A DNA stretch of 8,770 nt from a virus. Taxonomy: Duplodnaviria > Heunggongvirae > Uroviricota > Caudoviricetes. Shown piece after piece: positions 1-3,000 of the stretch (positions are counted from its first letter, which is position 1; every line of letters begins with the position of its first letter). The stretch lies in IMG/VR virus record IMGVR_UViG_2700989507_000009; one strand, 5' to 3'. The position numbers were made by a program.

Positions 1-3000
1 CGGCGCGCCAGCTGTTTAATGCGCGGATCCGGAGCATCGTATGAATCCGGCAGCGGAAGCCCTTCACCGTAAGCCATGGCATTGGACTGCCCGGCCAGTA
101 CGATGACGTAGTACCAATCCGGCTCAGATGAAGGGCCGACCTGTGGCTCTCCTTCAATAGCCACCGCCTGCATCAGTGTGTACGGCGTAATGGCAACCGG
201 TCCGCCGTATGGCTGCCAGCCCTCTTTCAGTTTGTGTGTCAGCTTTTCCGCAAGGTCTGACGGCGACGCCGCCCTGACAACATCGTAATGTTTAATCGAC
301 ATCGAATTTCTCCCGTGTAGAGGAACAGAGTTAAAAAGCCGGAAGCGGAATCAAATCACAGGATGACCATCTGCCAGTGGCAGGTCATAAAAAAAAGGCT
401 GCGCAATGCGCAGCCAGAACTCACAAGGAAAATGATAAAAGGAATAACACTAGTGATGTACGCATGGCGCCTCCCGCTAAGTTCTGCAATGATCAAACAG
501 AACTCGCTACGTGCCCTTAAAACTCGATCATTTAGCCCCTCCAAGGAGGATTCACCATGCGGTTGATTTTTTAATAAACAGTAAACAAAAAAGTCAAGAA
601 TTATTCATTCTGTTCTTTCATCATCGGCCACAGCAATACCACAATGCCGCAGACCAGAGCGCCATCAGTCAGTACCAACATTATCCTGCTGGTGAAATCC
701 ATCATCACCATCACTAAAAGCAGGATCACAACAGCAAGCAGACACAGTTTATAAAACAATGTTCAGAAAACGCATTCAGCATGCCTAAGGTTCTATTCCT
801 ACGAATAGCCAACTTGCAACTTGAAATATTATTTATGCAGCCAATTAAATTCTGGTCCTTACAATATCAACCTGAAGATTCTTATCTTGTGCTGATTGAT
901 AAATGACAAACCTTTTACTACCTGCATTGAAAGAAGTAGACAAAACCAGACAATTATCATAACGAGCAAGAACATAATACCAACCATCATTATAATTAAT
1001 CATTTCATATTCTTTCTTAAACTGTGGTTTGTAATATCCTGTCAGAAATGAAAAAAGCCAAAAATATGCCACAAAAGCAATCATCACAATCTCAAAAAAA
1101 TGTTTTTTTATAAATGGCTTATCATAGAAGCATGATACCGATAAAAATCGCCCATAAGATCTTATCGAAATTGTAACCGCCAGCGCAATCGCTGCTGACA
1201 GTAGCAAAAGAGGTACCTGAATCTTCTGTCTCAATATAGAAAACTCAATAATTGCCGGCACAAACAATAATTCCACAGCAAAATAAAGGCGAAATACATT
1301 TAGCTCTTGCATAGAATGTTTTCTTTTCACTGCGAAAAAGAATACAACACCAATACCCCAACCGATAAGAAATATAGCAATGACGATAACTGCAAAAAAT
1401 AAACTTCTGGCAACATCATCAACACCTGCACCTACAATCCACCATGGGAAGCCGTAGTAAAAAGAAGTACCCCATCCATAGAAATAAGCACTCCCCCATC
1501 CAAGGCATCCCATGTAGGCAATAAAAAGTGAAGAACTCCTGAGCAGCGCACCATCCTTCATAACCACCCCAATACAAGATGATAACATTGGCTTACAACT
1601 CATAACAAAAGCAATTCAATGCCGTCAAGAGGTTACAGGCTAAAAAAACTCTATTACATAGCAGCCAGCATGTTTACCGTACAAGTACAACTCAGGGCAT
1701 AAAAAAAACCCACTCGGCAGCGGGTTTATACATTTTTTACAACATACCAAATTTGCATGAAGTATATGGCTTTTAATCCAGTTTTGCAATATTTTGCTGT
1801 AAAAATGCTGCCTTTTGTTTTGAACGTGTTCTCGTCACAAGCAATAAAGCATCACTATCAAGCTGTAGAAAAATGTGCTTCATTGCAACCCAGCGTTCAG
1901 TAAATGTCTCGGACCAGTTTTTTGTTGTCACTCCCACCAATGATGCCAGTGTCTGGTATTCATAGGCCTCACGCCCTGCAAGTTCGCTCTTCACATCCTG
2001 TGCAGCCAGCCAGATTAACGTCTTCAGGCGATCCAGTGTCTTACCTGCAATTTTTCTGTTACTTAACAAATCTTTAAACTCGCTCCATGCCCATTGCGTT
2101 ATGGTGACCTGATGCCCCCATCGAACGCTTTCGCTGTAACACCAAAGCAACCATGCTTTCTGATGTTCATCGAGAGACAAAACCGCGCGGCGCCATGAAG
2201 AGGTTGAGAATTCAACCGGGCTGACCAAAGCAATGGATGAACCTTTTGCGTACGACTGCTTACCGGAAGTCGGCGTATTATCCAGCGTAATCATCTTGCC
2301 AGTTACCACATCCAGAATGCGCGGCTTCTTTCGTTTGTATGTACCAGTATCAAATTGTGCATGCTCCTGCCAGGCTTCGAGCTGGCCTTTCGTTGCTCCG
2401 TTCAAGTCAGCAGTAGCTGCCATAAGTTGCTCACGAACATACTGTAAATATTGGGTATTCATGCAGTAAATCCTTTCTATATTTTGGCATAATTCTTCAA
2501 CATTCGGTAATCGTTCAAAACCGAATCGGGGAAACGACATAAGCACAGGAGCCCCCAGCGACAGCGAAGGAGTTCTGATATATAAGACTCAGACATCATT
2601 CATTCCCCGGTTCTCCAATATCTGTTTCACTCATCATCCATAACTACCTGTAATTGCCCCCCTTTTTTTGTAACAGTTCTTATATTGCTATATAGAATAG
2701 CCATTACTAATGCATTTAAATTTAATAAAATAAAAATTATAAAAAACATAAAACACCACGCAAACACACTTAATAAAAACACCGTTACATTAAAAGATAA
2801 TAAAACCGCAATAAAAAACGAATAAATCAATTGTCTCACGCAATTATAAAACATCATATTGATTACGCACCTTGTATTACAAACTCATGTATGTAAAATA
2901 CGCGCACCATTCAAAAAAAAGGAAGACAATAACATATGAAAAAAAGTGTCATCGCTGGCGTCTTTATTGCTCTGTCATTTACCACGTGTTCAGCTATCGC

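Follow-up and report, generated by a model that had tools for sequence, protein, structure and literature searches.

Does the DNA at the end of the Q-like gene in a prophage fragment hold a complete late-gene switch, or only the terminator at which an early transcript stops? The locus lies in an 8,770-nucleotide stretch of viral DNA (IMG/VR record IMGVR_UViG_2700989507_000009, the whole of which we call the window), in which an initial annotation had placed a compact late promoter, pause element and terminator overlapping the 3' end of the Q-like gene. Our analysis makes us confident that positions 1789..1701 on the minus strand are a late-gene cassette of the phage 82 type, comprising the promoter pR', a Q-binding region, a sigma-dependent pause element and the terminator tR'. 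This assignment is carried by the anatomy of the site, its homology to 82-type promoters, a register kept across the Q82 family and a thermodynamically sound terminator.

Sequence elements at the 3' end of the Q gene

The Q antiterminator gene occupies 1773..2462 on the minus strand and encodes a protein of 229 amino acids (MNTQYLQYVREQL...AKLD*) whose only Pfam match is to PF06323 (E = 1.7e-91) and which is identical to the biochemically studied Q of phage 82 at 203 of 229 positions (89%), with the same N terminus. Its start, the ATG at 2462, agrees with that of phage 82 Q and with the annotation of Escherichia phage 434 (OL657226), where the gene is likewise described as Q82-like. The family match and the identity to phage 82 Q support the initial proposal of a Q that is not of the lambda type; the proposed Q-like identity of the gene also stands, while the extent given for it (1773..2540) has to be shortened to the start shared with phage 82 Q. 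PF06323, the Q82 family, is one of three unrelated Q families and the only one without a solved structure (PMC9388147); our own structure search for this Q and its relatives found no solved structure.

Promoter, pause signal and terminator fit within about 90 bases at 1789..1701, overlapping the 3' end of Q. All elements are read on the minus strand and are numbered from +1 = A1754, a position set by alignment to 82-type promoters. The -35 hexamer of pR', TTGCAA (1784..1789), lies inside the last codons of Q, which read ATT GCA AAA CTG GAT TAA with the stop codon at 1775..1773. It is followed by a 17-nucleotide spacer, AACTGGATTAAAAGCCA (1767..1783), which contains the Q stop codon and is the candidate region for the Q-binding element (QBE), and by the -10 hexamer TATACT (1761..1766), where 82-type cassettes have TATATT in the same register. 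Gapless alignment to the 82-type promoters puts the predicted start at AAA (1752..1754, +1..+3). The putative sigma-dependent pause element, recognized from its sequence and its homology to phage 82, is the extended -10-like TGgTATGTT (1741..1749, +6..+14), with the hexamer TATGTT at 1746..1741, exactly +9..+14, and the preceding TG at 1749..1748 (+6/+7). Beyond it lies the pause-site region GTAAAAAATGTAT (1728..1740, +15..+27), in which an AT-rich segment at +18..+25, AAAAAUGU, ends in U+25 at 1730 and the pause is predicted at U+25/A+26 (1730/1729). The terminator hairpin, AAACCCGCU-GCCG-AGUGGGUUU (1706..1727, +28..+49), was found by a terminator scan and by folding and is annotated in OL657226; it has 9 pairs, 4 of them G-C, with a G-C core at 1724..1709, and leads into a tract of eight U residues (1701..1708, +47..+54), giving a predicted RNA 3' end at about +52..+54 and a length of about 53 nucleotides. 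Both promoter hexamers and the spacer sit where they had originally been reported, the -10-like TATGTT falls precisely at the reported +9 to +14 when +1 is A1754, and the last U, at +54, agrees with a terminator said to end about 55 nucleotides from the start.

Allelic copies of the 434-type cassette (L009, L012, L047, L039 and L010) have U-runs of 7-9 residues. L047 carries a stem mutation, GAGTGGT, L039/L040 have TATATT as their pause element in place of TATGTT, and the -10 of L010 is TATGCT.

Much of the functional reading of these elements depends on their correspondence to the phage 82 promoter. At 82 pR', transcription of the wild type starts at AAA with stuttering, a -10-like element that includes an extended -10 lies at +9..+14, GCC at +15-17 is followed by an AT-rich segment at +18..+25 with U at +25, the pause is at +25/+26, and a one-nucleotide insertion at +18 brings G to the pause end (PMC5001585); the QBE is located between -35 and -10, within -31..-1 (PMC4914094). 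In place of the 82 pR' sequence itself, we matched 82-type relatives to the positional facts of PMC5001585. These relatives read TTGCAA-17-TATATT-TCATRT-AAATCTGATATTTTGCCAATGTTGTA and show every published positional feature of 82 pR' when +1 is taken as the first A of AAA, which validates the +1 assignment. The 434-type cassette aligns to them without gaps, with TATGTT at +9..+14, TG at +6/+7 and TGUA at +23..+26, and the likeness of the window to other phages with an 82-type Q extends across the end of Q and the promoter as far as window position 1740 (+15), where it stops. The spacer is identical to the 82-type spacer at 15 of 17 positions and to phage 82 itself over 11 nucleotides in X92588. 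Homology from -35 to +15 with promoters that match the published features supports the sigma-dependent pause layout that had been suggested for this site, and the Q82-family protein, the 82-type homology and the conserved register described below together argue for the Q-loading late promoter with a tR' that the same annotation had anticipated.

Several observations weigh against this assignment. The hexamers match at 9 of 12 positions, the -35 at 4 of 6, and sites of this quality number 11 in the window against 13.6 expected from shuffled sequence; both hexamers are present as first described, but to call the sigma70 promoter near-consensus was generous. Two of the 17 spacer positions differ from the 82-type, and +15-17 (1740..1738) reads GTA, not the GCC of phage 82. 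OL657226 annotates the terminator but no pR', and the list of small RNAs (sRNAs) obtained by Hfq crosslinking in E. coli O157:H7 Sakai, which concerns Hfq binding only, contains nothing at about 900033-900086.

Taken by themselves, the promoter hexamers are no commoner than chance would have them and prove nothing. This, along with the bare terminator annotated in OL657226, would suit a rival explanation in which the hairpin and U8 only end the early rightward transcript after Q and the promoter-like and -10-like hexamers are coincidental, an explanation that we nonetheless consider highly improbable. The full composite, defined as a promoter followed at 9-13 nucleotides from its -10 by TGnTAnnnT and then, within 60 nucleotides, by a terminator, occurs once in the window, at the 1789..1701 site, and in none of 400 windows simulated with a first-order Markov model; the pair of promoter and pause element on its own turned up in 7.5% of the same 400. 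Coincidence is also at odds with the match to the biochemically defined 82 pR' and with a register of -35, -10 and TGnTAnnnT that is nearly invariant in 160 distinct sequences whose flanks diverge. Moreover, the terminator could play both roles, since transcripts coming in from Q would run into it as well. Folding of the 57-nucleotide leader gives -15.3 kcal/mol (z = -3.4), a stability that none of 200 shuffles reached.

The mechanism that we propose for the late-gene cassette is modelled on phage 82 biochemistry (PMC5001585, PMC4914094), from which we infer where transcription starts, that it pauses, and that Q loads and brings about read-through. The sigma70 RNA polymerase would start constitutively at A1754, sigma region 2 would re-bind the extended -10-like TGgTATGTT at +6..+14, and the scrunched complex would halt at U+25/A+26. 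Without Q, polymerase would escape and terminate at the hairpin and U8 (+28..+54), releasing an RNA of about 53 nucleotides (52-54), and with Q bound between the -35 and -10 the paused complex would be modified and would read through into the late operon. At 82 pR', a long pause depends on the GC-rich, discriminator-like GCC at +15-17: its replacement by AAA lowers the pause half-life about 5-fold, and single changes to A lower it about 2-fold (PMC5001585). Since GCC is replaced by GTA here, a shorter pause is predicted, and it may be shorter or weaker than that of phage 82. The terminator stem begins 3 nucleotides after the predicted pause site, with no part of the hairpin made at the pause, a spacing that would require Q82 to be effective within about 25 nucleotides of escape. 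As a mechanism this is the known textbook phage 82-type switch; we did not find the compact layout described. A full-text literature search for the leader or terminator sequence returned nothing, and neither did one that combined phage 434 with Q82 or 434B.

Register and leader layout across the Q82 family

The register of promoter and pause element is nearly invariant across the Q82 family. Q82-family loci were taken from IMG/VR and GTDB genomes, and the Q stop codon of each, located by tblastn, served as the anchor; this yielded 168 distinct cassettes. The pause element stands at the expected register in 160 of them. The search itself demanded TA at hexamer positions 1-2 and T at position 6, which for that reason do not count as independent evidence. 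Hexamer position 3, on which no demand was placed, is T in 160/160, and TG precedes the hexamer in 153/160. The offset of the element from the Q stop is the expected one in 158 and +1 nucleotide in the other 2, and the -35 at the same register is TTGCAA in 132/160 and TTGCAG in 22/160. Of 59 distinct sequences in a first regular-expression scan, 57 had a 17-nucleotide spacer and 11 nucleotides separating the -10 and the element. The commonest forms of the pause element among the 160 are TGATATCGT and TGATATTGT (48 each), followed by TGATATTTT (22), TGGTATGTT (15) and TGATATGCT (10), the rest having other forms; A at hexamer position 2 and T at position 6 weigh most for sigma region 2.

The conserved -35 can also be read on the opposite strand. 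TTGCAA is palindromic, and on the plus strand it forms part of a cII box, TTGCAATATTTTGC (1784..1797), an exact TTGCN6TTGC that OL657226 annotates as paQ; on this reading the box would drive a cII-activated antisense promoter directed into Q, and cII binding would also occlude pR'. A GCAA-N6-GCAA motif also recurs in several Q82 relatives. Yet the one TTGCN6TTGC match compares with 0.79 expected, with at least one in 112 of 200 shuffles, and the motif is part of the coding region (QQxIAK), changing to N5 or ACAA in relatives. No -10-like hexamer is present at 1811..1816 (CCTTTT), which, going by the layout of pRE-type promoters, we take to be the place for the -10 of paQ. We regard such an antisense promoter as unlikely, and a cII box would in any case not exclude pR'.

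Downstream of the fixed register of the late promoter, the position at which the first terminator stem begins has a bimodal distribution among the distinct Q82-family cassettes. In a compact class of 22 distinct sequences, which includes the window and prophage Sp3 of Sakai, the stem starts at +24..+29 and the U-run ends at +51..+59. In a long class of 127 distinct sequences, the stem starts at +38..+69 and the U-run ends at about +69..+88. Two further sequences have a terminator still further away (stem start at +86 and +95), and 11, among them Stx1-phage-like leaders, have none by the criteria used.

The compact class is made up of eight Q lineages, the 434 type and seven others, with four spacer/QBE variants; the other lineages come from Citrobacter, Superficieibacter, Scandinavium, an Enterobacteriaceae genome and IMG/VR contigs, and each compact-class Q protein shares 63-100% identity with the query by which it was retrieved. 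The hairpin AACCCGCC-N4-GCGGGTT is found at +28/29..+48/49 in seven of the eight lineages, and the Citrobacter cassette L104 has the same hairpin core, scored at +24..+53. These compact hairpins show no compensatory changes and form one sequence family, differing mainly in the loop. A T23-N24-Y25-A26-T27 pause region is present in all compact lineages. Of the long leaders, those of the TGCCA type and some of the GCTGCC type also have T23-N24-Y25-A26, which the large GTCGCC-type group lacks. At +15-17, GCC is retained by most compact relatives, L101 having GTC. The 13 bases of the window at +15..+27, which match neither phage 82 nor phage 2B8, thus turn out to be the conserved pause region (compare GCCAAAAATGTAT in L105). 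Judged by these alignments, the compact layout recurs as an exchangeable module and did not arise by accident in this one sequence. The initial description of the cassette as much more compact than that of lambda thus captured a real property, one conserved in 22 sequences of eight Q lineages.

It is possible, though we would not call it probable, that the compact layout is a functionally distinct, selected architecture of the Q82 family, with its hairpin fixed at +28/29..+48/49. If so, it would set a natural upper limit of about 20-25 nucleotides of synthesis for Q82 to become termination-resistant, and it would offer a template for asking whether Q82 is an open rather than a closed nozzle. 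It would also make the RNA of about 53 nucleotides the shortest known pR' RNA, possibly with a function of its own.

A further possibility is that the terminated RNA is no mere by-product but itself a trans-acting regulatory RNA, like StxS from the pR' of Shiga toxin (Stx) phages. RNAs made between pR' and tR' can be sRNAs, StxS being an example (PMC7547250); the leader has an A-rich stretch followed by the hairpin and U8, and the +15..+55 module is conserved across genera. That conservation is, however, explained by the requirement for both pause site and terminator, and the list of Hfq-bound sRNAs from Sakai does not include this RNA. A search of the leader against Rfam 15 gave no family at the gathering threshold: the best match, to STnc240 (28.2 bits against 55), falls mainly over the terminator, and the other sub-threshold matches, to Phe and Leu leaders, are driven by the hairpin and U-run. 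A regulatory RNA at this site therefore seems to us improbable. STnc240 was also considered as an identity for the leader and rejected, the match being below threshold and the literature tying no STnc240 to this locus.

A separate feature of the long-type leaders is an extra hairpin without a U-run at +13..+36 (2818..2841 in L003, for example). A tally of 90 distinct long-type leaders from L003-L256 puts the end of its 3' arm at +36 in 55 leaders and within +35..+38 in 80, with a mean z of -1.8. Its arms come in at least four unrelated pairs (TGCCA/TGGCA, GTCG/CGAC, GCTGCC/GGCGGC and TCGGCA/TGTCGG), and there is a compensatory TGTCA/TGACA variant. The +25 pause site lies within the loop of this extra hairpin in the long-type leaders, and the compact 434 type is without it.

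The prophage surrounding the cassette

Positions 1..8125 of the window are 99.8% identical to phage 434 (OL657226.1), rising to 100% over 1560..2560, and the last 645 bases (8126..8770) are absent from that phage. Within those 645 bases, an open reading frame (ORF) at 8165..8683 on the minus strand encodes an rve integrase-core fragment of an IS3-like transposase (E = 9e-29). This rve-type fragment at the right end, which phage 434 does not have, makes it probable that the window derives from a 434-like prophage and suggests an interruption by an insertion sequence within the replication region. Related sequence is found elsewhere in E. coli: 5.4 kb of the window is 98.7% identical to prophage Sp3 of O157:H7 Sakai, and a 191-bp region around the cassette is found at 80% or more of its length in 620 of 5426 complete E. 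coli genomes, Sakai Sp3 included, with nearly all copies at 99% identity or above.

Past the terminator, the first gene of the late transcript would be that of a membrane protein at 845..1588 on the minus strand, annotated in OL657226 and corresponding to ECs_0816 of Sakai; a Pfam search of its product returned no family. Downstream of the membrane-protein gene, also on the minus strand, are a DUF3927 ORF (TciB in OL657226) at 601..759 and the start of a DUF1737/SASA esterase gene at 1..302. Surroundings with DUF3927 and DUF1737/SASA are the neighbourhood that holds the stx genes in Stx phages.

At 386..590 (minus strand), the window matches Rfam STnc100 at 41.4 bits (cutoff 47, E = 6.7e-7), and the match ends at a strong terminator at 415..397. 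The same segment corresponds to EcOnc13 of Sakai Sp3 (901332-901382, about 187 nucleotides), which lies within the most heavily Hfq-crosslinked intergenic region of Tree et al. 2014. An ORF of 62 amino acids at 356..544 overlaps the STnc100-like region; it is labelled a putative membrane protein in OL657226 and has no Pfam match.

On the far side of the Q gene, OL657226 has a 30-amino-acid N-terminal fragment of a lambda-type Q directly after ninI (window about 4014..4103, minus strand), and lpxR, encoding a lipid A deacylase, lies on the opposite strand at 2936..3895 (plus), between that fragment and the Q82-type module. Taken together, the lambda-type Q fragment, lpxR and the Q82-type module look like the scar of a Q-module replacement.

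The cassette among known late switches

Leaving its compactness aside, the cassette would be an ordinary lambdoid late switch, and its main value lies in annotation and in the minimal Q82 template that it provides. It places the unannotated late promoter of 434-like prophages, which are found in about 11% of complete E. coli genomes, and it indicates that leaders of the Q82 family come in two conserved layouts. With the pause and the terminator 3 nucleotides apart, the compact layout would make a natural minimal template for studying how Q82 blocks terminator hairpins.

The pR'-qut-tR' region of lambda, the source of 6S RNA, follows the logic proposed for this cassette: a constitutive promoter stands after Q, the QBE is placed between the -35 and -10, polymerase makes a sigma-dependent pause, and Q overcomes an intrinsic terminator (PMC9388147). 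The Q of lambda belongs to PF03589, which is unrelated to the PF06323 family found here. The lambda pause element lies at +1..+6, with pausing at +16/17, whereas the element here is at +9..+14, and transcripts from lambda pR' terminate at +193 (6S RNA) as against about +53. A lambda-type cassette, with a PF03589 Q and an element at +1..+6, was not found at this site. Phage 2B8 has a lambda-type Q and a lambda-like pR' before a degenerate copy of the terminator described here (AACCTGCCGCCGAGTAGTTTTT), and the same membrane-protein gene follows that copy.

In the pR'-tR' regions of Stx phages, too, termination shortly after pR' gives lysogens a constitutive short RNA of the kind predicted here, and the genomic neighbourhood is shared, with a DUF1737/esterase gene downstream. 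StxS differs in being 258 nucleotides long, processed to 74 nucleotides and bound by Hfq (PMC7547250); the RNA predicted here is about 53 nucleotides long and has no Hfq record.

The closest counterpart is the cassette of phage 82, with a Q that is 89% identical, TTGCAA in the last Q codons, 15 of 17 spacer positions in common, a predicted AAA start, an extended -10-like element at +6..+14 and TGUA at +23..+26 with U+25. The two differ in the -10-like hexamer, which is TATGTT here and TATTTT in phage 82, and at +15-17, where GTA stands in place of GCC. They also differ in leader layout: the 82-type leader hairpin at +13..+36 is absent here, the terminator stem begins at +28 rather than near +50, and the terminated RNA is predicted to be about 53 nucleotides long, as compared with about 80 for the 82-type.

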